From the NCBI GenBank assembly GCA_019058315.1, contig JAHPZH010000002.1, positions 128,001 to 192,000 of the forward strand: DNA of 64,000 nucleotides, given 5' to 3'. The stretch is from Candidatus Helarchaeota archaeon. Its GTDB lineage: Archaea; Asgardarchaeota; Lokiarchaeia; Helarchaeales; RDOG01. The notes under the pieces were generated by a model. It did no database searches. It was not told the DNA's origin and saw only the letters and a list, made by a program, of their open reading frames with translations. Made by a program: the position numbers and the translations under genes. This document shows positions 2,026 through 21,467 of this stretch, piece by piece; positions within the stretch are counted from its first letter, which is position 1; every line of letters begins with the position of its first letter.

Positions 2026-2832
2026 TTATAACTTTAATTCTTCTAAAAGTAAGGATAATTTTTCGATTTTTTTATTAATCTCATTTTTTTTATTCTCATA
2101 ACTCTTCTTTGTTAATTCACCTACTTTCAATCTCCCTTCTAAAATCCTTAGTTGCTCTTCTTGTTTCTCAATATCTCTCGTTAATAATTTTTGCCAATTT
2201 TCTTCAAAATAATATTTATCTTGAAGTTTGTCATTGAGTTTTTTTAATTTATCATCATATTCCTTTTTTAATTTCTCATATACATGGGGCTCAATTTCCT
2301 TTAAATGAAATTGGTTCTTTAAATTAGAGATCTGCTTTCTTAGTCTTTTCCTCTTTTCTAACAAGTCTTCTTGTGGTAATGGTTTTTTATCAGCCAATAA
2401 TTCCTTACGTTTTTGTTTTAATTTATCAATAGCTTCTTTCAATTTGGGGATTTCATCTTTGATTTCCTCTAATTCTTGTTCATTTAATTCTGAAAGAAAC
2501 GAATCAATTTTTTCTTTATGTTCTTTTAACTTCTTATCATATTGTTTAATTTTGACACGGATATAATATTGTTCAATTATTTCCTCGGGGATTTTTTCTG
2601 GTTTTTTTTCTTCTTTGGGGGCTACTTCGGGTTTTATTTCTTTTGGTTTTTTTTCTTGTTCAGGTTTTAAAGGAACAGGGGCTTGTTTAGTTTCTGGTTG
2701 GGGTTGGGTAACTTTCTCCTCTGATATCTTAATGGGCTTCTCTTCTTCCTCCTTTATTTTAAATCCACAATAAGGACAATAGTTATCTTCAATACTGATA
2801 GTTTTCTTACAAAATGAACATTTTATTTCCAA
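2026..2832 (-). CDS. Zinc-ribbon + CdvA-like coiled-coil protein
   Basis: N-terminal CSFC/CPYC ribbon, Pro/Glu/Lys linker, and a coiled coil with two (G/K)E(I/L)xxxxYExxKxE helical-hairpin motifs like those of CdvA/SHOCT. Confidence 0.6.
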   Translation of the reverse strand: MEIKCSFCKKTISIEDNYCPYCGFKIKEEEEKPIKISEEKVTQPQPETKQAPVPLKPEQEKKPKEIKPEVAPKEEKKPEKIPEEIIEQYYIRVKIKQYDKKLKEHKEKIDSFLSELNEQELEEIKDEIPKLKEAIDKLKQKRKELLADKKPLPQEDLLEKRKRLRKQISNLKNQFHLKEIEPHVYEKLKKEYDDKLKKLNDKLQDKYYFEENWQKLLTRDIEKQEEQLRILEGRLKVGELTKKSYENKKNEINKKIEKLSLLLEELKL

Positions 2833-3020: not shown

Positions 3021-3419
3021 ATGGCACAATTGACAAAGGAATTAGTTGATCGTTTAAACGAAATATCTCAGAAATTAGATAGTTTTACTAAAGGTTTAGG
3101 AGGCTTAGTGGAAGCCATTAATAAACTTGGAGAAAATACAAATTCAATATTAAGTGAATTGAGTAATAAAATTGGAAGTTATGCAGATATTGTATCTACA
3201 AAGAGTCAAGAAGATTTTGAGGTATCAAAAAGTCAATTAATTTCAATAAATACACAAATTGACAAAATTAGAAAAGGCGTAGGAATGGAGCAGATGTTAA
3301 AGATAAGTGATTCGTTAAGTGGACTTCTAGATACATTAGGGGGAGCAGATTTCGATCCAATGGATTTAAAAAATAAATTATCAGAAATTAAAAATTATAT
3401 AGAATCCAAAAAAGAATAA
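3021..3419 (+). CDS. Short coiled-coil protein, type A1 (paralog of 6485..6841)
   Basis: All-helical heptads; EISQKL matches EISTKL of the 6485 gene. Confidence 0.7.
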   Translation: MAQLTKELVDRLNEISQKLDSFTKGLGGLVEAINKLGENTNSILSELSNKIGSYADIVSTKSQEDFEVSKSQLISINTQIDKIRKGVGMEQMLKISDSLSGLLDTLGGADFDPMDLKNKLSEIKNYIESKKE

Positions 3420-3436
3420 AATATGAGGCAAATTTA

Positions 3437-4111
3437 ATGAGCAATAGTGCGGATAAAGTTTTACCATTTATAACAACTGTTGTAAATGACATTTATGAAA
3501 AAGTGGGAAATCTTTCTGATTCTTTTAATAAACTTAATGAAATAATTGGTAATATAACTAAGAATTTTGAAGATAGTATAAATAAGCTTTCAAAAGATGT
3601 TGATGAAATTCTTGAAGAGACTCGAATGAATCGAGATCTAACATTAGAAGCATTTTCAGATTCAATGAATGCCTTTCTTGCAAAAATAAAAGAAATTCAA
3701 GATGAAAGTAACAAAACTTATGAAGGAAGTGAAATGGGGACAATATTATCCAGACTTGACAGAATTTCAAATAAAATTTTCGATAAATACTGGGATATTC
3801 AAATGTCTTGTACTGTATCAAATCTACACGTATTAGTTGATCTCTTAAAAGGAAACCCTAATATTATCAGAGTTCAAGTTCCAGTTGTTCAACAAGTTCA
3901 ACCAATTACTCCAAGAGTGCAAGCTGCAGCGCCTCTGTCAGCACCAGTACCATCAATAGCACCGCCTCCGACTAAACCAGAGGCCCAACCTGAGGGAAAA
4001 GTTGATGTGTTTGCAAAAAGTCCAAAATTTAAAGGCGGAAGAAAATTAAAAACCCATGAAGATCGCATGGAAGAAATGAAGAAAAAGAAGAAACTGTTTG
4101 GCCGTTATTGA
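3437..4111 (+). CDS. Coiled-coil protein with Pro-rich tail, type B1 (paralog of 6150..6476)
   Basis: DKVLPFITTVVNDIYEKV matches RSLLPFVASSLNDVYSKL; conserved Trp; Pro-rich linker ending KKKKKLFGRY. Confidence 0.75.
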   Translation: MSNSADKVLPFITTVVNDIYEKVGNLSDSFNKLNEIIGNITKNFEDSINKLSKDVDEILEETRMNRDLTLEAFSDSMNAFLAKIKEIQDESNKTYEGSEMGTILSRLDRISNKIFDKYWDIQMSCTVSNLHVLVDLLKGNPNIIRVQVPVVQQVQPITPRVQAAAPLSAPVPSIAPPPTKPEAQPEGKVDVFAKSPKFKGGRKLKTHEDRMEEMKKKKKLFGRY

Positions 4112-4115
4112 ATTT

Positions 4116-4553
4116 TTATCCGAAAAGGTCTGAGGGTTTTAAAAGACTATCATCTTCATCTTTACCAGATGATGGTGCAGGTTCAGTGGGAGTTCCAACT
4201 TGAGGAGGGGGTGGCAATGAGCTTGATTTACTAGGTTGAGCAGATTGTGTTTGGCTTTTTGGAGCTGATTTTACTGTGCTTGTAGATACCATACCCATCA
4301 TTTGTCTAACATCTTGAAGTACGCGATGTAATTCTAAAATTTGTACTCCCTTCTGCAGACTTTCTACCGAATCTTTTATTGTTTCAGTAACATTACCTAA
4401 ATTTCCAGAACCAGCTTTCTCTATGGCTTGATGAATTAAATTCTGATTTTGTATTAACAAATCATTATTTTGTTTAACCATTTGAGATAAATCGTTTACG
4501 CTGCTAACTAATGCTTTTAAAAGCCTTATTATTTCTACACCTAATTGATCCAT
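4116..4553 (-). CDS. Coiled-coil protein with Pro-rich tail, type C1 (paralog of 6865..7431)
   Basis: LQKGVQILEL matches LQKSIQLLSI; acidic patch followed by terminal LLKPSDLFG. Confidence 0.75.
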   Translation of the reverse strand: MDQLGVEIIRLLKALVSSVNDLSQMVKQNNDLLIQNQNLIHQAIEKAGSGNLGNVTETIKDSVESLQKGVQILELHRVLQDVRQMMGMVSTSTVKSAPKSQTQSAQPSKSSSLPPPPQVGTPTEPAPSSGKDEDDSLLKPSDLFG

Positions 4554-4644
4554 TGTATCGCCTCTTAATTATAGACCATTTATTATATTTTTTATAATAA
4601 TACCTTTTATAATCTTGTTTTTTTTCTAATATATTAATAATTTT

Positions 4645-6128
4645 TTAAGGATTAATGTCTTTCCACATTTTTTTAATGAATAATAATCTTTTCATTCTAT
4701 CTTTGTGAGAAACTCCATCAAAAGTTTCATATGTCCAAGCATTTAATTCGGGTGGGCCTAAAGCTATAGGTTTAATTAAATTAAAGTTAAAAATTGGTGA
4801 TGATTTCATTAAACTAAATACACTAACTATTATATTTTCGATATATTCCACATTTTCTTTTAAAAAATTAATTGTTTTTTCAAAATCATCTTCATTTTCG
4901 TTTGGGAAACCTGTCATTATATATAAATAGGTCCTAACGTTTGCATTTGATAATATTTTTAGCAATTTGGAAAAATTATTAATATTTATTTTTTTACCAA
5001 TAATATCCAGAATTTTGGGGCTAGCTGATTCTAATCCAAAAAAACAATGACTCAAACCCCTTTTAATATAATTTAAGATTTGTTTTTCATTAATATTTGA
5101 TATTTCACAATTGCCCCCCCATTTAATTTCTATATTTGAATTATATAACAAATCGAGAGCTTTTCTAAAACCATTAGATAAGTTAAATGCATTATCAACA
5201 ATTTCAAAATTATGAATACCATAATTACTTGTATAATATTTTATCTCTTCAAATATAATTTGAGGGTTTTTTCTTCTGAAATCACCCCAAATTGAATTTT
5301 CATTACAAAAAACACACTTATTTGGACAACCTTTTGCTGTAAGAATATCTAAAGTTTTAAAATTTTCAAGTTTTAGATCTTCTAAAAAATCATATCTAGG
5401 AATAGGTAAATCATTTAAATTCAGTTTATTAGGTGGTTTAGTAAAATGTATTTTATTATTTTTTTTAAATCCGATACCTGGGGAGTTATAAATACTAATT
5501 TTATCTTTAATTTTAGATAATATTTTTAATAATGGAATTTCACCCTCTGGATGATATACTACTAAGTCTATAAATGGTAATTGTAAATAAAGGTTCGCTC
5601 TATAATTTAAAAAAGCCTCAGGTCCACCAAATATAATTAATGAGTCTGGTTTTTCCTCTTTTATTCTCTGAGCAGCATAAATTGAACTGATTGCATTTCC
5701 AGTAGTTACTGAAAATCCATAAATTCTTGATTCAGATTTAATTAATTTCTTAATATACGTCTCTAAAATCTTTTCTGTAACTTTTTTATGTTTTAAAAAT
5801 TGATAAAAGAAAGGTTTGTATAATTTAGAACATACAGAACATAAAGACTGGATTAGATTTTCTCCAATTTTTTCATAGTTAAAAAAAATATGACCCCATA
5901 TTAACCAATTTGCAGCCCCCCAAATTGCAAATTCGGGGATTTTAAAATCATAATAGTTTTTGATATGAAAATCCTGAGAAATTTTTTTTTATAGAAATCT
6001 AGACTAAAATCAAAGCCTGAAACATTAAATCCTTTATTTTTTAAAAAAGTTATAAGACTTACTATTCCAAGAGATGGAATTTGGGTTGTATATGCCGGTA
6101 AAGAGGTTAAAATACAGTCAAACTGCAT
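4645..6128 (-). pseudogene. B12-binding radical SAM enzyme, split by a single-base frameshift (about 494 aa if restored)
   Basis: The 4645..5151 frame stays open upstream to about 5990 and encodes IIFGGPE, EGE and GCPNKCVFC (CxxxCxxC). The N-terminus (PSLGIVSL, ORF 5901..6128) joins it at an A9 run (T9 at 5982-5990 on +) that is one A short. Confidence 0.85.
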
Positions 6129-6149
6129 TTATTCACCAAAAAAATAGTA

Positions 6150-6476
6150 TCAAGACTCAAATTGTTGCACAACATTCAAGATCCGTTTTAAAGCTAGTAA
6201 AAAGTCAACATACCATATTCCTTCATTGATCTGGTCCAAAGTTTGATTGAATAATTTTGTGGTTGATTTGAATTCGTTTGAAATTTGAACTTTTTCCAGA
6301 GTATTGTGCATAACCCGAATTTTACCAATCGCTTCACTAATTTGTTGATTTAATTCTCCTAAAAACTTAGTGAATTCATTTCCAAACAGTTTTAATTGGT
6401 TTGAAAGTTCATCAAGTTTGCTATAAACATCATTTAAAGATGAAGCTACGAATGGTAAAAGGCTTCTATCAGACAA
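6150..6476 (-). CDS. Short coiled-coil protein, type B2
   Basis: Paralog of the N-terminal helical part of 3437..4111 (LPF...ND(I/V)YxK, conserved W); lacks the tail. Confidence 0.7.
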   Translation of the reverse strand: MSDRSLLPFVASSLNDVYSKLDELSNQLKLFGNEFTKFLGELNQQISEAIGKIRVMHNTLEKVQISNEFKSTTKLFNQTLDQINEGIWYVDFLLALKRILNVVQQFES

Positions 6477-6484
6477 ATTTATCT

Positions 6485-6841
6485 TTACTCCATAGAGGTT
6501 TGTTTAGAAACTTTTAATAAAGCTCTTATTAGTTCAGAAACCATATCCGAAACATTTTTTTTATCTAATTCTTGTTTTATAGTAGCAGTTAAAGTTAAAA
6601 GGTTTTGTTTAGCTTCCTCAATTTCAGATAATTTAAAAACTGTTTCAAAGGTTCTGGTTAATCGATCAACATTGACATTTAAACTAGCTATCGCTGATGC
6701 TATGCCATTTTTCACATTTACAAGAGTTTTGGAAAGGTTATTAATGTTATTATTTGTTTGAATTAATTTTGTAGAAATTTCTTCAAACATTTTTTTTATT
6801 TGAACTGCAGTATCTGAAACTTTACCTTCTGATGTAGCCAA
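6485..6841 (-). CDS. Short coiled-coil protein, type A2
   Basis: Helical heptads similar to 3021..3419; 8-bp gap to the next gene. Confidence 0.7.
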   Translation of the reverse strand: MATSEGKVSDTAVQIKKMFEEISTKLIQTNNNINNLSKTLVNVKNGIASAIASLNVNVDRLTRTFETVFKLSEIEEAKQNLLTLTATIKQELDKKNVSDMVSELIRALLKVSKQTSME

Positions 6842-6864
6842 ATATTATACACCTAAGTATCAAA

Positions 6865-7431
6865 TTAACTTCCAAAAAATGTAGATGGCTTAATTAATCC
6901 TTCCTCAGATTCTTCTTCTTTCTCTTTCTTTTCTTTTTTAGCTGTTTTTGTTGGAGGAGGTGAAAGTTGAGCTTCAACTTTTGCAGGAGGAGGTTTTATT
7001 CCAACAACAGGTTTTGCTTCTTTTGGTTCTTTCTTTTGAGACTCCTTCACTGTCATTGGAGTCGGTACGCTTCGCACATTAGTTAAATTCTCGATCCTAC
7101 TTACTAAATTTTGGATTGATAAAAGTTGTATACTTTTTTGAAGCTTCATAATTGTATGATCTAGAGTCTGATCTATTTGATCAAGACTCTGAATCCCTAA
7201 ATCGTCAATTTTTTGAGAAATATTCTTTTCTAAAGATGGGATTTCTTTTTGTGCAATAGTTGAAAGGCTAGTATTTACTATTGATTCAATTTTTCCTATT
7301 TTCTCTGTAAATTCATTAAATAACTTGCTTTGATCTCCTATCTTTTTCTCTATTCGCTGCAGTGCTCTTACAGCATCTTCTAGAATACCTGCCAATACTT
7401 TCATCAATGCACCTGAATCCGGTGTCGCCAT
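6865..7431 (-). CDS. Coiled-coil protein with Pro-rich tail, type C2
   Basis: Helical N-terminal region, PPP-containing linker, acidic patch and terminal LIKPSTFFGS. Confidence 0.75.
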   Translation of the reverse strand: MATPDSGALMKVLAGILEDAVRALQRIEKKIGDQSKLFNEFTEKIGKIESIVNTSLSTIAQKEIPSLEKNISQKIDDLGIQSLDQIDQTLDHTIMKLQKSIQLLSIQNLVSRIENLTNVRSVPTPMTVKESQKKEPKEAKPVVGIKPPPAKVEAQLSPPPTKTAKKEKKEKEEESEEGLIKPSTFFGS

Positions 7432-7590: not shown

Positions 7591-8598
7591 TTATAAGGGT
7601 TTCCCAGAAATCCAAGCTTCACTTAACAGAGTTGAGAAAAATTCAATATGTTTTGGATTGTTTGACATCATACCCATAGGTCCTGGTGTTTTATCAGAAT
7701 GAGCAGCCAAGATAATTTCTTCTCTATCATGTTCTAGCCCCCATCTATCTTGTTTATCAAAATTTCGAAAAGTTATATTTGGAAATCCAGAAAATGTATC
7801 CATAATCTCTTTATGGTTTTCAATATTAAGATCTATAAATGTAGCAATCCGAATATTGATTTTTTTATTAAGATTTTGTAGTTCAATTTGTTCAATATCT
7901 TCAATTGTAGGTGTACATATTAATAATCTAATTTTTACATTATCTAACATATTATTCATTATACTAATAATATTCTCTTTCCCTTGAATCAAGCCCGTTT
8001 TTTGTTCTTTAATATTTTGATACTCCACATTTAATTTTTCAAAATCATTCTCAAGATCAGATATCGTTTTCTTTAATTCATTTATTTTTTCTTGTTTCCC
8101 AGTAATTTCCTTTGTTTTTTCTTTAGTATCATTTTTTAAATCTTCAATCTTAGAAACTAGTTTCTCATCAGCTTGTAATGCTGTTTCTAATTTTTTTTCT
8201 TTATCTTCAATCTCTTTGTTTTGTTTTTCGATATTTTCTTTTAAATTTTTAATAACTTTAACTTGACGTGAATTTTGTTCTTCATAATTTTGGATTTTTT
8301 CCTGAACCCCGCCAAATTCACTCTTAAGTTCTTCAAATGTTTTCTGCATATCTTGCTCTTTTTCTAAATAATTTTTTTCTAATTGTTGTATCTTTAATTC
8401 ATGTTCCTTTTTTAAATCAGCAATTAATTTTTCTTGCATTTGTTGATTTTCGACTAATCTTTTTTCAAGATTTTCGCAAGTTTCTTCTTTTTCCTTAAGA
8501 TTTTCTAGTAGTTCTTTTTCCATAGTAAGTATTATTTGTTCTTGTTCTTCTATACTAACTTGAGCATCAATTTTTTTTTCTATAATTTCATCATTCAT
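7591..8598 (-). CDS. Long coiled coil + C-terminal TrmB/PLD-fold domain (no HKD)
   Basis: Likely start ATG 8598 after GGAGA (track start 8652 overlaps the upstream gene). About 200 aa coiled coil; C-terminal domain aligns by eye with that of 29313..32459 (xP..D...R...D.EE(I/V)(I/L)xA). Confidence 0.7.
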   Translation of the reverse strand: MNDEIIEKKIDAQVSIEEQEQIILTMEKELLENLKEKEETCENLEKRLVENQQMQEKLIADLKKEHELKIQQLEKNYLEKEQDMQKTFEELKSEFGGVQEKIQNYEEQNSRQVKVIKNLKENIEKQNKEIEDKEKKLETALQADEKLVSKIEDLKNDTKEKTKEITGKQEKINELKKTISDLENDFEKLNVEYQNIKEQKTGLIQGKENIISIMNNMLDNVKIRLLICTPTIEDIEQIELQNLNKKINIRIATFIDLNIENHKEIMDTFSGFPNITFRNFDKQDRWGLEHDREEIILAAHSDKTPGPMGMMSNNPKHIEFFSTLLSEAWISGKPL

Positions 8599-8611
8599 AT
8601 AAATCTCTCCC

Positions 8612-10261
8612 TTATTTTGAAAGAGAATCGGACCAGTTTTTTCGAATTTCATTTATATGGATTTCATCTATTAAATTTTTTCTTAATAACTCATTAAAAC
8701 CTCTAGAAATCTTTCTATCAATATCAGGATTAGAAAAAAGATTTTCTTTTGAACAATTAAATTCAAAATTACTTCTTAGTTCCAAATTTATTTCTAAAGC
8801 GTTTTCTAATCGTTCTTGTAACATGACTTTAAATGAACTGTGTAAAAAATCAAAGGGAACCCATCTTTCTGATGTATTAAATTGGTTTGGGAGGAGGGAT
8901 GGTGGAGAAACGATAATTTTTTCATCACCATCGATTGTTTCAATCTCTGAAATATATAAAGGAATCCAAACTTTATTAATTGGCATAACTATTCCAAGGG
9001 AATTTCCTGAAACCGACCAAGATCCTAAATAACTCTTTTCATTTTCACAGACTTTTATAATTTTATCGATTTTTTCAAGAAGTATTTGAGCTTTATTATC
9101 AATTCTTTCCTTAATTTGTGTAAGTTGAGATAATTCTTTCTCTCTTTGTTCTTTAATTTTAGGAATTTTTTTATCCCCTTCTTCAACTAACTTTTGAAAT
9201 TTATTTTCAATATCGGATTCTTGGGTTCTGATTTCTGAAGCAAGTGCATCTATATCTTTTTGACTATTTTCTATTTCAATTTTAGTTTTAGTTATTAGCT
9301 CCTTAAAATTTGGAATATCCTTATCCAAGTTTTTTATTAATTTCAACGCTAAAGATAAGATTTCTTCAGGATCCTTTTCTTCAGCAAAAGAAGTTTTAAT
9401 TACTTGTGAATCTTTTAAAATTTTTTCAAGATTTTGTATAATTAACATAAATTTTTCAAAAATATTTTTTGAAATTGCATTATTCCGTTTTTCTTTCCAT
9501 TCCTGTAATTCATAATATTCATTAGATTTTTTAACTTCATAATCTCCTTTTATATTCTGTAATTCTGAATCAAGTTTGCTTAAAGTATATTTAGTTCTTT
9601 TTTCTTTTTCAGTATATTCTCTATTTATTTCAATTATCCAATCATCTGTAGTTGACGATACTAAGCCTTGAATCTGCTTCCAGCTCGTAATATTATCATC
9701 AACTTTTTTTATTGCACTCTTGAAAGATTCTGCAATATCAATCACGTTATCAGTGGTAAAGGCTTCCTCTAATTTCGCCATATAAGTCGATGGCTGAGTA
9801 TCTGTAAGTTTTATTAAAGTAGTTAATCCTCTTAAAACATCAGGGTCTATCATTCCCTTTATTTGAATCTCCTCTTGACCCTTTTCTTCAACTGTAGCTA
9901 AGACTTCATCTAAAACGTCAGGTAATCTATTTCTATCAGGACTTGCGTCTCTTAATAATCTTCCGATTTTAGCTCTATTTGGTGAACTACTTATTTTAAA
10001 ACTGAACGAAAAATAATCCAAATTATCAATTGCTATGTAATTTTGAGCATCGGCTTGAATTAAAGTGATTGGCCATAAAGCTTTCGAAAAAAAGATATAT
10101 TTTGATTTTAAAAATTCACTTTTTTTTCGTGAATATTCAATTAAAGCAAATTTTGATGCTAGTTCAAGATCAAATGGGAATGGAATAGAATTCTTTTCAT
10201 AAATTATACAAGGAGTAATGGAAAGAGATTCCTTTGCTGGTCCAATATTTTGACTTGCCAA
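8612..10261 (-). CDS. Hypothetical protein: globular N- and C-terminal regions flanking a long coiled coil
   Basis: 549 aa; beta-strand-like segments LWPITLI and VWIPLYI bracket about 250 aa of heptads; no Walker motifs. Confidence 0.6.
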   Translation of the reverse strand: MASQNIGPAKESLSITPCIIYEKNSIPFPFDLELASKFALIEYSRKKSEFLKSKYIFFSKALWPITLIQADAQNYIAIDNLDYFSFSFKISSSPNRAKIGRLLRDASPDRNRLPDVLDEVLATVEEKGQEEIQIKGMIDPDVLRGLTTLIKLTDTQPSTYMAKLEEAFTTDNVIDIAESFKSAIKKVDDNITSWKQIQGLVSSTTDDWIIEINREYTEKEKRTKYTLSKLDSELQNIKGDYEVKKSNEYYELQEWKEKRNNAISKNIFEKFMLIIQNLEKILKDSQVIKTSFAEEKDPEEILSLALKLIKNLDKDIPNFKELITKTKIEIENSQKDIDALASEIRTQESDIENKFQKLVEEGDKKIPKIKEQREKELSQLTQIKERIDNKAQILLEKIDKIIKVCENEKSYLGSWSVSGNSLGIVMPINKVWIPLYISEIETIDGDEKIIVSPPSLLPNQFNTSERWVPFDFLHSSFKVMLQERLENALEINLELRSNFEFNCSKENLFSNPDIDRKISRGFNELLRKNLIDEIHINEIRKNWSDSLSK

Positions 10262-10411: not shown

Positions 10412-12820
10412 GTGATATCTGGAGTTAGAAGGCGTGAGACCGCTGCTGAAGGAGCTAAATTATTTATTACTTCTGAAACATTATGCCAAAGATTAAGAAG
10501 AGAAATAGACAGGAAAAAAATTATTGAAATCACTGGAAAGAAGAGTAAATTTTTAGATTTTCTCTTAGGTTCTGTCACAATTCAATTATTTCATTATGTA
10601 GGTTTAAGAATAGATAAAATCACCTCCCAAACTCAATTATCTACTGAAACTGAGAAAGAATTCGAATTAAGCCAGAAAAAAACCTTATTTTCTGAGTTAA
10701 AAGACTTTTCCAGTGATTTTTTCTTAAAAGAAATTGAAATTTTTGAAAAAGAAGTGTTACTAGAACAAGAGATTATAAAGAATGCTATTAATCAAAGAAA
10801 AGAAAAAATAGATAAGGATGTAATTTTTACTCAAAACTTGAAATTCTTACGGTCTCAGTTAATATCCCTTTTTAGAAATTATCCAAATCAATGTTTTTAT
10901 GATTATCTAGGAAAAATTTTAGGTATTTCAGAAACAACAAGAAAAGAAATTCTCCAAAATGCCGCAGAATTTAAACCTACTCAAATTGAAATTGAAAAAG
11001 AAATGAAAAGGGAATATGAAGATGAATTTATAGAATTAGCCGTTTTTAATAGAATAAAAAAAATAATTAATGATAAATGGGAAATTATGGTTCCAAAACA
11101 ATTAGAAATGCAAAGTGTTATTTTAAAAAGATTAGAATCGGATATAATTAAATTTCTTATTGATAAGATCCCTTTTTCAGAAAAAGCTCTTAATTCCCAC
11201 CTTGAGAGTGGAATATTAAAATTAAAAATAATTGAAATAATAAAAGATTCTTGTAAAAATGATCATTTTTATGAAGAAATAGAATCTTCGATAATAAATT
11301 TACTAAATATAGAACTACACAAGCAAGCTTCAAAAGGTTCGAATTCGTTTTTGGATTTTATGTCAAATTTATTGCAAATATCATTAGATGAAGTTATGAG
11401 ATTCTTGGAAGTTCATGAAATAAAAAATGTTACAAATTTCTGTCAAGCCTTAACTTTAGAAATAGGAGAAATAGAAGAGAAATTAGAATCGAAATTAATA
11501 AGTGATTCTGATCTATTCCGTTTAGGTGATAGAGGACCATTAGTTCAAGCACAAAAAACTTTGGAGAGCTTAAAAGTTGAAGAAAGAGTTCCAGAAACAC
11601 TTTATGAAATGACACTGGAAGATCTATTTTCTGGAAAAACCCCTATATTTGGAAAACTCCTCAATGAAGTTTGTAAAAGAGTTAATATTTCCCCAGAAAC
11701 TCTAAAATCATTAATTGAAAAAGATAAATTGTTAAAACAGATTTTTAAGGATTCAGAGATTAGAGATATTGAACAAATAAGATTATCATTAAAAATGGAT
11801 AATATTTTAAAAGAAATTTCCCGTGAAATCTTTTATACCTTAATAACTAACTTTTTACGCTCGATTTCACGAATAGTCGAACAATATCAAAAAATCAAGA
11901 GGGATAAAGAAATATTTCTAATCGCAATCAACAGAATTTTTGATTTAAAGAGTTCAGAAAACTGGATTAAGGTTAAAGTTGAAGATCTAATAATTAATAA
12001 GATAATGGATAGACAAAAAGAGATCGTAGATCTAGTAGAAAATAAAGACCCATTTTTTATTAATGGATTTATATGGGCAAGATTATCTGATAAAACTATT
12101 AAAAAGGCACTAGAAGAATTGAAAAAAACAAATAGTCCAGTATATGAAGATATAAAACCTCTCTCACTATCCTTTGATAATATCCCTCCTATCTCATATG
12201 CGACTGCTTATGATATGTGTATCAGGATAGAAAAGGGTTTACAAACAAAGCGTTTAGAATCTAAAAAAAGAAAAGCAAAGGAAGAAGTAATGAAAACTGC
12301 TGAGACAAAACAAGTATTTAAGGATGCTGATACTTATGGCTGGTTGGAAAAGCGGATTAATATGTCTCTAATGAGAATCGGGAAAATTCAACCCAGTCAA
12401 CTCTATTGGAAAGAAGAAGATTCCAATAAGTTATCTAAAATTATATTGTTACATACTCAAGTTAAAAGAGGGCAGGAAATTTGTCCTGAATGCGGTGAAA
12501 ATGTAAATTTAGAAAAATGTGATATACATGGTCCATGTATACCAAAAAAAGCTTCATTAATAGATACTTTGGCTAAATTTTATTCCTTTTCTGTAGATAA
12601 ATTAAAAAAAGTCGATTTTAGTTCAGCTACAAATTTTGTTTTACAAACTGCGAGTCCAATTTTAAAAAAGAGACTTGGTCATGAACCAAAAATTGAAGAG
12701 TACGAGAAATTGCTCGAGGGTGAAATCTTAGAATTAGGTAAAGTATTAGGAGAAGATATAGGAAAAAAATTGAACAAGGCTTTATATAAAACTTGGCGTA
12801 AAAAAGAATTAGGGCGTTAA
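10412..12820 (+). CDS. Large helical hypothetical protein with a C-terminal Zn-finger-like insert
   Basis: 802 aa, mostly helical; CPECG...CDIHGPC near the C-terminus. Confidence 0.6.
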   Translation: MISGVRRRETAAEGAKLFITSETLCQRLRREIDRKKIIEITGKKSKFLDFLLGSVTIQLFHYVGLRIDKITSQTQLSTETEKEFELSQKKTLFSELKDFSSDFFLKEIEIFEKEVLLEQEIIKNAINQRKEKIDKDVIFTQNLKFLRSQLISLFRNYPNQCFYDYLGKILGISETTRKEILQNAAEFKPTQIEIEKEMKREYEDEFIELAVFNRIKKIINDKWEIMVPKQLEMQSVILKRLESDIIKFLIDKIPFSEKALNSHLESGILKLKIIEIIKDSCKNDHFYEEIESSIINLLNIELHKQASKGSNSFLDFMSNLLQISLDEVMRFLEVHEIKNVTNFCQALTLEIGEIEEKLESKLISDSDLFRLGDRGPLVQAQKTLESLKVEERVPETLYEMTLEDLFSGKTPIFGKLLNEVCKRVNISPETLKSLIEKDKLLKQIFKDSEIRDIEQIRLSLKMDNILKEISREIFYTLITNFLRSISRIVEQYQKIKRDKEIFLIAINRIFDLKSSENWIKVKVEDLIINKIMDRQKEIVDLVENKDPFFINGFIWARLSDKTIKKALEELKKTNSPVYEDIKPLSLSFDNIPPISYATAYDMCIRIEKGLQTKRLESKKRKAKEEVMKTAETKQVFKDADTYGWLEKRINMSLMRIGKIQPSQLYWKEEDSNKLSKIILLHTQVKRGQEICPECGENVNLEKCDIHGPCIPKKASLIDTLAKFYSFSVDKLKKVDFSSATNFVLQTASPILKKRLGHEPKIEEYEKLLEGEILELGKVLGEDIGKKLNKALYKTWRKKELGR

Positions 12821-12831
12821 CAAATATTCTA

Positions 12832-13452
12832 TTAGGGTTTTTTTAGACTCAAATAATATTTCAAAACAGCGTCCCGAGCTACCTGTTGAAATGATCTTTT
12901 GATATTTTTACCCTGAATTGCAATCGTATCGTAGATCTGGGTCGACATTTCTATTCCGTGAGGATTAACTATAGTTCCTAGTCCTTTTTCCTTTAAATAT
13001 TCTTCAACTTTTGTTTTTGAAATCAAGTTAGGTAGATCAACTTTATTCAGTTGGACCAAAAAAGGGATCTTCTTTCCTAGAGCTCCACTTAAATGACCAA
13101 TCAATTCATCGAGACTCCAAAGATTTTCTTCCGTTTGGTCCTCTTGTGCGTCCCATACGAAGATTACCGCGTCTACGCCATTTAGAATCGTTTTACGCTG
13201 AAATTTATGGCGTTTTTGACCAGCAACTGTATAGACTTGTAGAGAAACGCCTCCAACACCCGCAGTCATACGATCAAAGAATAGGGTTCGCCCAGTGGGA
13301 TCCACTATTGACTGCATCTTACCCTTAGCCATCCCCTCTTTCTCGAACATCCACTTTACGGCTGTTGTTTTTCCCGATAAAGATGCTCCCCAGTACACAA
13401 TTTTGAATACTAACTTACCATCAGAACCTCGACTGGGGCACACAAATTTCAC
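12832..13452 (-). CDS. mglA: MglA-family small GTPase
   Basis: KIVYWGASLSGKTT (G1), RTLFFD (MglA switch I with Arg), TVAGQ (MglA-type G3), NKVD (G4), TIA (G5). Confidence 0.85.
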   Translation of the reverse strand: MKFVCPSRGSDGKLVFKIVYWGASLSGKTTAVKWMFEKEGMAKGKMQSIVDPTGRTLFFDRMTAGVGGVSLQVYTVAGQKRHKFQRKTILNGVDAVIFVWDAQEDQTEENLWSLDELIGHLSGALGKKIPFLVQLNKVDLPNLISKTKVEEYLKEKGLGTIVNPHGIEMSTQIYDTIAIQGKNIKRSFQQVARDAVLKYYLSLKKP

Positions 13453-16965: not shown

Positions 16966-17556
16966 TTATTTTTTAATATAACAAGACAGAATTTTTTTTG
17001 CACATAAAGTAAATGCATTCTTTACATTCTTTCCGTCAATTGCTACCGTTTCTATAAAATCTACATTTCTTAATTTTGCTTTTTTAAATATTTCTTCCGC
17101 ATCTTTTCTAGTTACTCTTTTACCACGAGCAAGATCAATTTTATTGAACATACAGATCATAGGTAAATCTAATAATTTTCTTTTAAGAATTTCAATTAAT
17201 AAATTAATTGCAGCTAGATTATCCTTCCAAGCTTCTTTTGAGGCGTCCCAGACGAAAATTATTCCATCAACACCCCCTAAAATAGCCTTTTGGAGTGACT
17301 CAAAACTTTTTTTTCCGACTACACTCCACACTTGAAAAGAAACATTTGATTTACCAATTTTTGCCATCATTCGATCGAAAAATGACGCATCACGACCAGC
17401 TCTAACTTGAGTTAATTTTCCAGTTTGGATTCCCTTCTCCTTATCATGTATCCATCTAATGGATGTCCCTTTACCTGCTAATTCTGGTCCAAAATATACC
17501 ATTTTAAATACCAATGAACCATCAGGCAATTTTTGGGGCATCTTATTCCAACTCAT
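16966..17556 (-). CDS. MglA-like small GTPase with degenerate motifs
   Basis: DGSLVFKMVYFGPELAGKGT, ASFFDRM, SVVGK, NKID, ETVA; a clear paralog of 12832..13452. Confidence 0.8.
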   Translation of the reverse strand: MSWNKMPQKLPDGSLVFKMVYFGPELAGKGTSIRWIHDKEKGIQTGKLTQVRAGRDASFFDRMMAKIGKSNVSFQVWSVVGKKSFESLQKAILGGVDGIIFVWDASKEAWKDNLAAINLLIEILKRKLLDLPMICMFNKIDLARGKRVTRKDAEEIFKKAKLRNVDFIETVAIDGKNVKNAFTLCAKKILSCYIKK

Positions 17557-19754: not shown

Positions 19755-21467
19755 TTAAAAAGGAGTAGCTTTTTTAAATTTAATTTGAATATCGCGATAT
19801 AGATTATGCCAATATTTAAGATATTCCCTTGTTTCATCAGAAGATATAGGTATTGGAGATTTTTTTATTAATAAATTCATTTTCTCATTAGAAGAAGATA
19901 ATTTCTTACTAAATTCGTCAGCTCTTGCCCTAAAAGTTTTTAAATTCTTTATTTCCTTGAGATTATTTAGACGCTGAATGAAATGCTTATGAAGTACTTC
20001 AGATGATTGTTGGACCGTGATTTTGAGTGATTTTTTTAATTTTTCAATTTCTTGAGGATTATTAGTAATCCAGTATTTAAATTGATCATTTTCAAGCAAT
20101 TCCCCCTTTAACTGATCCTTATTTATTAATGATACCAGCGTTTTTTTCATTTCCTCTTTATCTACACTAAATATTTCTGATAATATCTTTAAATCGACAG
20201 TAACATATTGTTTTAAAAATTGAATTAGCTTATTTACAGAATCTGGGGATTCTTCTAACCTAATAGTCTTAAAAACGGGAAGAAGTTTAATTTCTTTTAA
20301 ATTTAAATTAACATTATGTTTTTCAAATCTAATTCTATCCATAACTTGAAGTCCCTCTTCAAAAAATTCAGTGGGACTAACCATGAAATTAATAAAATCG
20401 GGATGAGCACTTAATTTAGATGCACCGCTCCATTCGATAATATTTGAATAATCTGGATGAAAACGTTTAACATTAATTTCAATGTTTATTGAGTTTCTTA
20501 AAACGTTAAGTATTCTCTCATCCATTCCTTGAAAACAAGCTCTGCCTCCTAAAATGATAGAAAGATAAAAGTCTCTTCTAATATTCCTATCAAAATTCTC
20601 CAAAATGGAACTTAGAAATTCTGGGAGAGGAAGAATGTCCTTTCCAATGAGGACAGGGTTAAAAAACATTTCTGTGACGGCGTATCGTTCAAGATCTATT
20701 AATACTCTTTTTTCATTAAAGTGAAATTCTCTTTCTAATTTCGAAATGTGGTCAAGATTTCCTTTTGTCAGATTTTCAAATTCATCACGGCTGGATGCTA
20801 CAAGACAATATCTTGAGATTTGTTCTAAAGCATAATCAGATAATACAACTCCATTTCTTGATGAAACTAGCACATCAAGGCTTTCTTTTAAATCTAACAA
20901 CGAGATATCATAGATATTTGCTTGCTGTTCAAGAATAGTTCCTTTCCACACGGGTAAAACTTGGGTAGTTGTATCGAGATAAACAATTAATCCCGTCTCT
21001 CGGTTTGTCGCTAAATAAGTTGAATAAGGTTCACTTAATAGAATTAAACCTGATGGATTAAATGTTTCAAAAATAATTTTTGCTAAGTCTTGGATGAATT
21101 GATTTGGTACAAATAAGGGGTGAGTAACGACATAATACTGCCGTCCCTTAATATCTAATAAATTAAAAATAATATTTGCCAAAAGTTTTGACAATAATTC
21201 TCTATTAATATTATAATCTAAATCAATAGGTCGAATTAATTTTAAATTAAAACGATTATCAATTGCTTCTTTCCCAAAATAAATTTCTTTAGTCAATTTA
21301 ACGTCTTTAAAATAAAGCTGCTTCATTACTTCATCTAAATGGCTCTGTGATGGGATTCCAACTATATTTGGCATAATTAGCCTGGGTTTTTCTTCCCCTG
21401 AAAAACCAACTTTGATATACTCTAAATTAATATCTAAAATGATAACCTTTGACACTAGTTTCACCAT
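19755..21467 (-). CDS. Divergent actin-related protein with C-terminal PCI/winged-helix-like extension
   Basis: IKVGFSGEEKPRLIMPNIVGIP, TGLIV...QVLPV, ERYAVTEMFFNP, IRRDFYLSIILGG and EWSGASKL parallel actin motifs; about 190 aa extra C-terminal region. Confidence 0.85.
   Translation of the reverse strand: MVKLVSKVIILDINLEYIKVGFSGEEKPRLIMPNIVGIPSQSHLDEVMKQLYFKDVKLTKEIYFGKEAIDNRFNLKLIRPIDLDYNINRELLSKLLANIIFNLLDIKGRQYYVVTHPLFVPNQFIQDLAKIIFETFNPSGLILLSEPYSTYLATNRETGLIVYLDTTTQVLPVWKGTILEQQANIYDISLLDLKESLDVLVSSRNGVVLSDYALEQISRYCLVASSRDEFENLTKGNLDHISKLEREFHFNEKRVLIDLERYAVTEMFFNPVLIGKDILPLPEFLSSILENFDRNIRRDFYLSIILGGRACFQGMDERILNVLRNSINIEINVKRFHPDYSNIIEWSGASKLSAHPDFINFMVSPTEFFEEGLQVMDRIRFEKHNVNLNLKEIKLLPVFKTIRLEESPDSVNKLIQFLKQYVTVDLKILSEIFSVDKEEMKKTLVSLINKDQLKGELLENDQFKYWITNNPQEIEKLKKSLKITVQQSSEVLHKHFIQRLNNLKEIKNLKTFRARADEFSKKLSSSNEKMNLLIKKSPIPISSDETREYLKYWHNLYRDIQIKFKKATPF

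Follow-up and report, generated by a model that had tools for sequence, protein, structure and literature searches.

A window of 64,000 nucleotides from the genome of a Candidatus Helarchaeota archaeon (GenBank assembly GCA_019058315.1, contig JAHPZH010000002.1, positions 128,001 to 192,000 of the forward strand) carries six small genes for predicted helical proteins, which form two sets of a three-gene module, here termed A-B-C. The six were initially annotated as a duplicated, undescribed system of short coiled-coil proteins, possibly related to eukaryotic multi-subunit scaffolds. All six open reading frames (ORFs) are found in the ORF list at the coordinates given in Table 1, each of the sequence motifs quoted in the initial annotation is present, and the arrangement described there is likewise confirmed. 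Module 2 is a C-A-B operon with 23 bp between C2 and A2 and 8 bp between A2 and B2; in module 1, A1 and B1 are spaced by 17 bp and converge on C1, with the stop codons 4 bp apart.

Table 1. Positions of the module genes, of their neighbors in the window and of related loci outside it.
Feature	Location	Strand	Description
A1	3021-3419	+	132 aa; all-helical; module 1 (type I); in the ORF list; orthologs 53-58% identical
B1	3437-4111	+	224 aa; helical body of ~140 aa, Pro-rich arm, basic tail ending KLFG(R/K)Y
C1	4116-4553	-	145 aa; helical body, Pro/Ser-rich arm, terminal acidic-LLKPSDLFG; converges on B1
B2	6150-6476	-	108 aa; short form without the ~25-residue central insert and without a tail
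A2	6485-6841	-	118 aa; TTG start, kept in orthologs
C2	6865-7431	-	188 aa; helices 5-78 and 80-120, disordered arm 122-176, terminal LIKPSTFFGS
B12-binding radical SAM gene	4645-6128	-	between B2 and C1; frame broken at A9 run 5982-5990
p549 + p350	7591-10261	-	coiled-coil-rich; co-directional with C2-A2-B2; 41-nt mutual overlap; context Helarchaeales-specific
p350	7591-8652	-	coiled coil and C-terminal globular domain
Zinc-ribbon and coiled-coil protein	2026-2832	-	268 aa; divergent from A1; kept beside module 1 in Helarchaeales
p803	10412-12820	+	~800 aa; no Pfam, NCBIfam or Atlas match
Arf-like GTPase	12832-13452	-	small-GTPase Pfam matches (Arf/Ras/RagA-type)
Second small GTPase	16966-17556	-	best Ras-profile stretch begins at residue 63
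Actin-family protein	19755-21467	-	570 aa; nearest actin-family gene, ~12 kb from module 2
Third module	contig C12, about 21.5-24.8 kb (locus L062, 5522-8778)		GIFT-domain protein, GTPase, A3 and B3 on one strand; C3 opposing
Roadblock-like upstream gene	locus L034, 11721-12407	-	
Roadblock-like upstream gene	locus L035, 8101-8766	+	
Roadblock-like upstream gene	locus L036, 4943-5677	+	

Kinship of the six genes

The two sets correspond to each other gene by gene, to a degree that differs among the three types. In Smith-Waterman comparisons against 300 shuffles, C1 and C2 reach z = 12.2 (BLASTP E = 2e-8) and B1 and B2 reach z = 9.1 (BLASTP E = 3e-6), and by sequence both pairs are clearly paralogs. 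The A1/A2 pair, in contrast, scores no better than shuffled helical sequence (z = 1.4; BLASTP E = 0.12). Of the three paralog pairs proposed initially, those of B and C thus pass the shuffled control, whereas the A pair fails it and is retained on weaker lines of evidence. These are a comparison of the A1 and A2 ortholog profiles with hhalign (probability 77%, E = 2e-5, over 46 C-terminal columns), the existence of A genes from other lineages that match both hidden Markov models (HMMs), and the position of A1 and A2, each directly upstream of a B gene. B1 in addition carries an LPF..NDIYxK motif near its N-terminus and a conserved tryptophan in the helical body, and its basic tail ending KLFG(K/R)Y is conserved among orthologs. 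The B2 gene begins with TTG where its orthologs use ATG.

Similarity also extends across the gene types. B1 resembles C2 over the helical part and the Pro-rich arm (z = 9.7, BLASTP E = 2e-5), the B and C profiles align over columns 1-62 of both in identical register (hhalign probability 93%), and A and B align with a probability of 71%. Both of the tandem genes found in Lokiarchaeia score better with the B profile than with the A profile. Because of these hhalign scores and the match of the Lokiarchaeia genes to the B profile, A, B and C are plausibly members of one ancient family that triplicated.

Conservation and duplication of the module

Orthologs of all six genes are found in unchanged order in three other long Helarchaeota-type contigs, at 42-84% identity, and the C2 relatives in this identity range carry the source names Helarchaeota or Promethearchaeota. 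The order shared by these contigs begins with the Arf-like GTPase and p803, the latter on the opposite strand, continues with p549, p350, C2, A2, B2, the B12-binding radical SAM gene and C1, and ends with B1 and A1 on the opposite strand and the zinc-ribbon coiled-coil protein. The genes from p549 to C1 are all co-directional on the minus strand of the window.

Family profiles were searched in a sample of 301 Asgard genomes, and the flanks of the loci were scanned by HMM. Matches to the C profile occur in 81 of these genomes and matches to the B profile in 70. Genes matching the three profiles lie next to each other, with A directly upstream of B, in both sets of the window, in a further set on contig C12 of the same genome and in loci from six other lineages. 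The synteny expected in the initial annotation is therefore borne out, with the module order conserved in several classes. Of the five Freya/Jordarchaeia (family f22) loci scanned, four have A-B converging on C and the fifth (L038) has all three genes on one strand; the same convergent layout is found in family f11, Hermodarchaeota (f15), family f24 and Odinarchaeia (f6). Helarchaeales hold both layouts, the convergent one in module 1 and the C-A-B operon in module 2, and in Lokiarchaeia (f4/f5) the A-B tandem lies near SepSecS with the C gene elsewhere. The spacing between A and B is 25 nt or less, or an overlap of 4-8 nt, in every lineage examined, and spacing this tight is typical of co-translated subunits. 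The convergent layout is kept from Odinarchaeia to Helarchaeales, with the B and C stop codons 4-32 nt apart in most lineages and ~195 nt apart in one Freya locus; the 3′ ends of the converging A-B and C transcripts probably overlap or share a terminator.

Judged by its sequences, A-B-C is a conserved gene module that is restricted to several Asgard lineages. It was not found in the 76 Thorarchaeota genomes (f10) of the sample, apart from two weak B matches (E 2e-4 to 5e-4, in ORFs of ~256 aa), nor in four other large Asgard families of the same sample (f8, f17, f25 and f30). A search of 1.84 billion representative proteins with the B-family profile gives 44 clusters at E ≤ 0.001, for which reason the family appears small; the matches among them that go beyond short, family-sized proteins are long proteins matching in several stretches, and every source-named match is from an Asgard archaeon. 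Within the Asgard sample the B family is confined to the lineages described above.

The module is present in more copies than the two sets of the window suggest. On contig C12 of this genome, C3 (~21.5-22.1 kb, plus strand) is approached by converging B3 and A3 genes, and a lone fourth C-like gene of 261 aa is located on contig C9; the window itself belongs to contig C5. Another Helarchaeales genome (G240) likewise has three modules, on separate contigs. The assembly of two heterotrimers or one heterohexamer proposed in the initial annotation is thus an undercount. In maximum-likelihood trees of A, B and C, the module-2 genes of all three types cluster with genes from Freya and f11, and those of module 1 associate with Lokiarchaeia, module 3 or the two together, at reported bootstrap values of 81-93 (supports of 81/80 for A1 with Lokiarchaeia, 81/50 for C1 with C3 and Lokiarchaeia, and 90/90 for B1 with B3). 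The copies split alike in the three trees, which is moderate evidence that whole modules were duplicated together and upholds the proposed duplication of a three-gene unit; it is no more than moderate, given the short alignments and several long branches.

A possible hetero-oligomeric rod and its alternatives

The proteins are all-helical, as first proposed, with disordered tails. The AlphaFold2 model of C2, built with a 41-sequence alignment, has helices at residues 5-78 and 80-120, with a predicted local distance difference test score (pLDDT) of 85-98 in ten-residue blocks across residues 11-110, followed by a disordered arm at residues 122-176 (pLDDT below 50) and a terminal peptide with a pLDDT of ~54. 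C is accordingly modeled with confidence as a helix of ~115 residues that continues into a disordered arm and a conserved terminal peptide. In the model of B1 residues 1-150, two helices span residues 4-94 and 99-137, and the mean pLDDT is 65. The N-terminal halves of the proteins have a hydrophobic periodicity of 3.55-3.6 residues, and the C-termini of all six are polar or disordered.

The C-terminal peptide of C follows the consensus acidic-h-(L/I/V)-(K/R)-P-S-x-(L/F)-F-G, which is conserved from Lokiarchaeia to Freya with a nearly invariant proline among the 41 sequences. Odinarchaeia and family f24 have the variant KPKSIWEG, the C proteins of Hermodarchaeota and the lone C-like genes have a basic tail of the DWRE...KYGLKK type, C3 is devoid of the KPS..FG tail, and the B1 protein of Helarchaeales has gained a C-like arm and a basic tail. 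Several readings of these tails were tried and set aside. A linear motif shared genome-wide is rejected, as a KPS..FG motif near a C-terminus occurs only in C1 and C2 among the six-frame ORFs of the whole genome. The tails searched alone against Pfam match no WH2, thymosin or other motif family, and since that search is empty, a likeness by eye of the B1 tail (KFKGGRKLKTHED) to the LKKT region of thymosin-beta/WH2 is unsupported. PIP-box, HbYX and MIM readings are rejected on spacing or position, by inspection only.

None of the six proteins scores above the curated cut-offs of Pfam. The sub-threshold matches listed by hmmscan at E ≤ 1, which include Baculo_PEP_C, DUF948, NPV_P10, Mod_r, DASH subunits and Vps53_N, represent the usual coiled-coil background: Mod_r, alone among the ESCRT-I stalk profiles Vps23_core, Mod_r and MVB12, matches C1 at E = 0.19 (12.2 bits against a cut-off of 30.1), DASH_Dam1 (E = 0.23) and DASH_Dad1 (E = 0.42) each remain below half their cut-offs, and Vps53_N reaches E = 0.027. 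Within the same limit GCN5L1, BLOC1_2, Snapin_Pallidin and KxDL are not listed for any of the six, and no match to SNARE, synaptobrevin, Snf7 or PspA_IM30 (the last two of the ESCRT-III/PspA superfamily) is found among them. NCBIfam likewise gives only sub-threshold coiled-coil noise, PDB sequence profiles match only designed or viral coiled coils, and a feature search of the ESM Atlas with B1 and C2 returns only an Asgard cluster. At the level of the fold, Foldseek against the PDB returns a single match for the B1 model, at E = 4.9, and none for C2, and a VIA-align comparison of C2 with 48,161 chains produces a flat list (Z 6.6-7.3, 120-128 residues aligned) of generic long helices, the best of them single extended helices of coiled-coil rods; a chain of the Dam1 complex, at rank 41, does not stand out. 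Among the papers searched, none describes the module or connects Asgard archaea to BORC or BLOC-1. As far as these searches reach, A, B and C appear to belong to no described family and to have no relatives outside Asgard archaea, in agreement with the initial view of an undescribed system.

The module is conserved in synteny, has been duplicated as a unit and falls into no described family, and these features fit a hetero-oligomeric rod, confined to Asgard archaea, in which the helical A, B and C proteins combine and an arm recruits a partner, an explanation for which the case appears about evenly balanced. One A, one B and one C would pack side by side into an elongated helical rod ~15-18 nm long. 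A Pro/Lys/Glu-rich arm of 50-70 residues would extend from C, and in Helarchaeales also from B1, and its short conserved terminal peptide would dock onto a partner protein, for which the gene context suggests actin-family proteins or small-GTPase machinery as candidates. Duplication of whole modules followed by co-evolution would account for the agreeing splits in the A, B and C trees, and Helarchaeales would possess three specialized versions of the rod, two of which flank the radical SAM gene in the window. Of the hetero-oligomeric complex in the initial annotation, then, the conserved and duplicated helical module stands, while the assembly, its stoichiometry and its partner are what we infer from it. 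Prediction of a complex of A2, B2 and residues 1-125 of C2, each with its alignment, gave an ipSAE of 0.00 in both of two runs, an outcome that the tool classes as "no answer" and that weighs neither way.

A number of observations speak against such a rod. In Lokiarchaeia the C gene is unlinked from A-B, so C need not be an obligate subunit, and a C gene that converges on B cannot share a transcript with A-B. At least two classes of tail exist, KPSxxFG and the basic DWRE...KYGLKK, and there may hence be no single partner. The trees are built on alignments of ~140 columns and contain many long branches, the A and C profiles align with a probability of only 25%, and the weak profile similarities may be inflated by helical composition. 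Finally, the neighbors of the module, described below, differ by lineage, and Asgard genomes are rich in small GTPases and roadblock proteins, this one having 23 roadblock matches, so that their adjacency could be due to chance.

Several of these points are shared by an alternative in which the related helical proteins act separately or as homo-oligomers, such as filament or intermediate-filament-like rods or adaptors, and lie side by side as a result of tandem duplication and stable gene order. A, B and C do look like distant paralogs, C stands apart from A-B in Lokiarchaeia and alone on contig C9, and long single helices are also typical of the homo-dimeric coiled coils that fill the VIA-align list. 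Yet each of the three types has retained its identity across class-level distances, translational coupling of A and B is frequent, and all three have been duplicated together three times with agreeing trees; separate action is given a minor but appreciable chance. It is extremely improbable, on the other hand, that the small proteins are substrates of the adjacent B12-dependent radical SAM enzyme in the manner of precursors of ribosomally synthesized and post-translationally modified peptides (RiPPs) of the proteusin style, with the C-terminal peptide as the modified core. That peptide is indeed short and conserved, and the radical SAM gene, situated between B2 and C1 in the window, also adjoins B2 in four other Helarchaeales contigs; the association is, however, seen in Helarchaeales only, with none of six further lineages examined showing it, the pattern of conservation in the helical bodies is that of structural domains, no protease or exporter is present, and in three of four genomes the reading frame of the enzyme gene is broken.

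The remaining alternative, suggested initially, is an archaeal forerunner or homolog of a eukaryotic membrane-trafficking scaffold such as BLOC-1/BORC, the ESCRT-I stalk, WAVE/WASH or DASH. These complexes too are composed of several short distinct helical subunits with disordered tails, and Arf-like and Ras/Rab-like GTPases are encoded nearby, loosely recalling BORC-Arl8; a BLOC-1/BORC-type complex is functionally tied to an Arf-like GTPase in eukaryotes. BLOC-1 and BORC consist of mutually related helical subunits of 110-180 aa (BLOS1, BLOS2, snapin, KXD1) in an elongated complex, as would the module, but their small subunits have no Pfam match here, and the module is encoded as a conserved gene cluster and has no detectable eukaryotic relatives. 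In ESCRT-I (Vps23, Vps37, Mvb12, Vps28) three different helical chains form a rod and Pro-rich linkers are present, a likeness that again presupposes the rod, whereas the module has no UEV or steadiness-box domain and the Mod_r score is far from its cut-off; moreover, the ESCRT-III genes of the genome, the only three found in a genome-wide Snf7 search, lie on another contig (C10:108.8-112.5 kb), away from all three modules. As in SNARE bundles (Qa/Qb/Qc/R), several different short helical proteins would zipper together here, but the module proteins have no SNARE match or membrane anchor, and a SNARE motif is only about half as long as their helices. The Mod_r, DASH_Dam1 and Vps53_N matches that could favor a eukaryotic-type scaffold are far below threshold amid dozens of unrelated coiled-coil matches, no Pfam family of the complexes named, WAVE/WASH included, exceeds noise, the profile and fold searches return only designed, viral or generic helices, the B family is small, and the module was not found in Thorarchaeota and the four other families named above. 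Kinship to these complexes is accordingly unsupported, and an ancestral scaffold of this kind is very unlikely. The module itself is real, Asgard-restricted, conserved and duplicated.

Genomic neighbors and possible partners

The genes beside the module differ among lineages but include several of potential relevance to a partner. In module 3, a Ras/Rab-like GTPase gene (Pfam Ras, E = 3e-52) lies 58 bp upstream of A3 and is itself preceded by a gene for a GIFT-domain protein (Pfam IFT52_GIFT, E = 4e-14). The Hermodarchaeota module comes after a pair of actin paralogs (Pfam Actin, E ~1e-33 to 1e-35) and a NIF3 gene; at the loci examined from Freya, f11, Odin and Loki, no such adjacency to actin was observed. 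Directly upstream of A in Freya and f11 is a gene of 220-245 aa that combines a roadblock-like N-terminus with a conserved C-terminal domain; the N-terminus is probably a roadblock/LC7-like domain, to judge from its alignment with the roadblock proteins of this genome (hhalign 80%, E = 1.4e-5), with further matches to PDB entry 7f8m (E = 0.16) and Pfam Robl_LC7 (E = 0.12). Weakly, these neighbors point to a cytoskeletal or GTPase setting.

In an elaboration of the rod model, the hetero-trimer would be a cytoskeletal or GTPase-linked adaptor whose terminal peptide captures an actin-family protein or a small-GTPase/roadblock switch. The capture of an actin-family protein would resemble that by arcadin-2 or by WH2-type groove binders, and each of the three paralogous Helarchaeales rods would have a partner of its own. 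We regard this elaboration as speculative and rather unlikely to hold as a whole.

The closest functional analogy to the module appears to be arcadin-2, a regulator of crenactin encoded in the crenarchaeal arcade cluster, the last 17 residues of which alone bind the hydrophobic groove of crenactin (eLife 2016, PMC5173319). Both cases involve small archaeal proteins, encoded in clusters of the cytoskeleton type, in which a linker joins the body to a short C-terminal peptide that is conserved and contains aromatic or hydrophobic residues, and the A-B-C genes of Hermodarchaeota lie directly beside the two actin paralogs. The likeness is drawn on architecture, however; arcadin-2 is a single subunit whereas the module has three, and the adjacency to actin is found in one lineage, in which the C tail is of the basic type and not KPSxxFG.

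No known organisms are more closely related to eukaryotes than Asgard archaea, whose cell biology relies to a large extent on proteins of unknown family. The module is compact and deeply conserved from Odinarchaeia to Helarchaeales, and it comprises three families that seem to have no relatives outside Asgard archaea; as it repeatedly adjoins actin paralogs, a small GTPase or a roadblock-like gene and bears a short putative docking peptide, it offers a tractable target. Should the rod be linked to actin or GTPase switches, it would represent a lineage-specific layer added to the Asgard cytoskeleton, and an adaptor of this sort would be an archaeal invention parallel to the eukaryotic multi-subunit coiled-coil adaptors. 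If it is not so linked, the module would still illustrate clearly how gene triplication can give rise to a hetero-oligomer.

Within the window, three genes lie between the Arf-like and the second small GTPase genes, of which one is a GNAT gene and another encodes an amine oxidase. The 570-aa actin-family protein carries an insertion, as deduced from its two Pfam Actin stretches, and the canonical actin homolog of the genome is found elsewhere on the same contig (C5:296.6 kb). The p803 gene, for which the ESM Atlas feature search returned nothing, is nearly single-copy in 151 of the 301 Asgard genomes (64 of 68 Lokiarchaeia, 68 of 76 Thorarchaeota, five of six Freya and five of five f11) and shares synteny with the module in Helarchaeales and in Freya. 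It was considered as an obligate partner and rejected, being present in the 68 Thorarchaeota, a group in which the module was not found, and not found in the module-bearing Hermodarchaeota or Odinarchaeia. Similarly, p350 was dismissed as a partner of C in Lokiarchaeia, as the gene next to C in that lineage does not resemble it; p350 is one of an expanded family and has seven paralogs across this genome (E 1e-9 to 1e-23). In the radical SAM gene, the poly-A run consists of nine residues in the window and in two related loci (L010 and L011) and of ten in a third (L012), where the gene is intact and encodes 492 aa, and contigs from another study span the run without an indel relative to the window. 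The one-base change of frame is due either to programmed slippage or to a recurrent homopolymer miscall.

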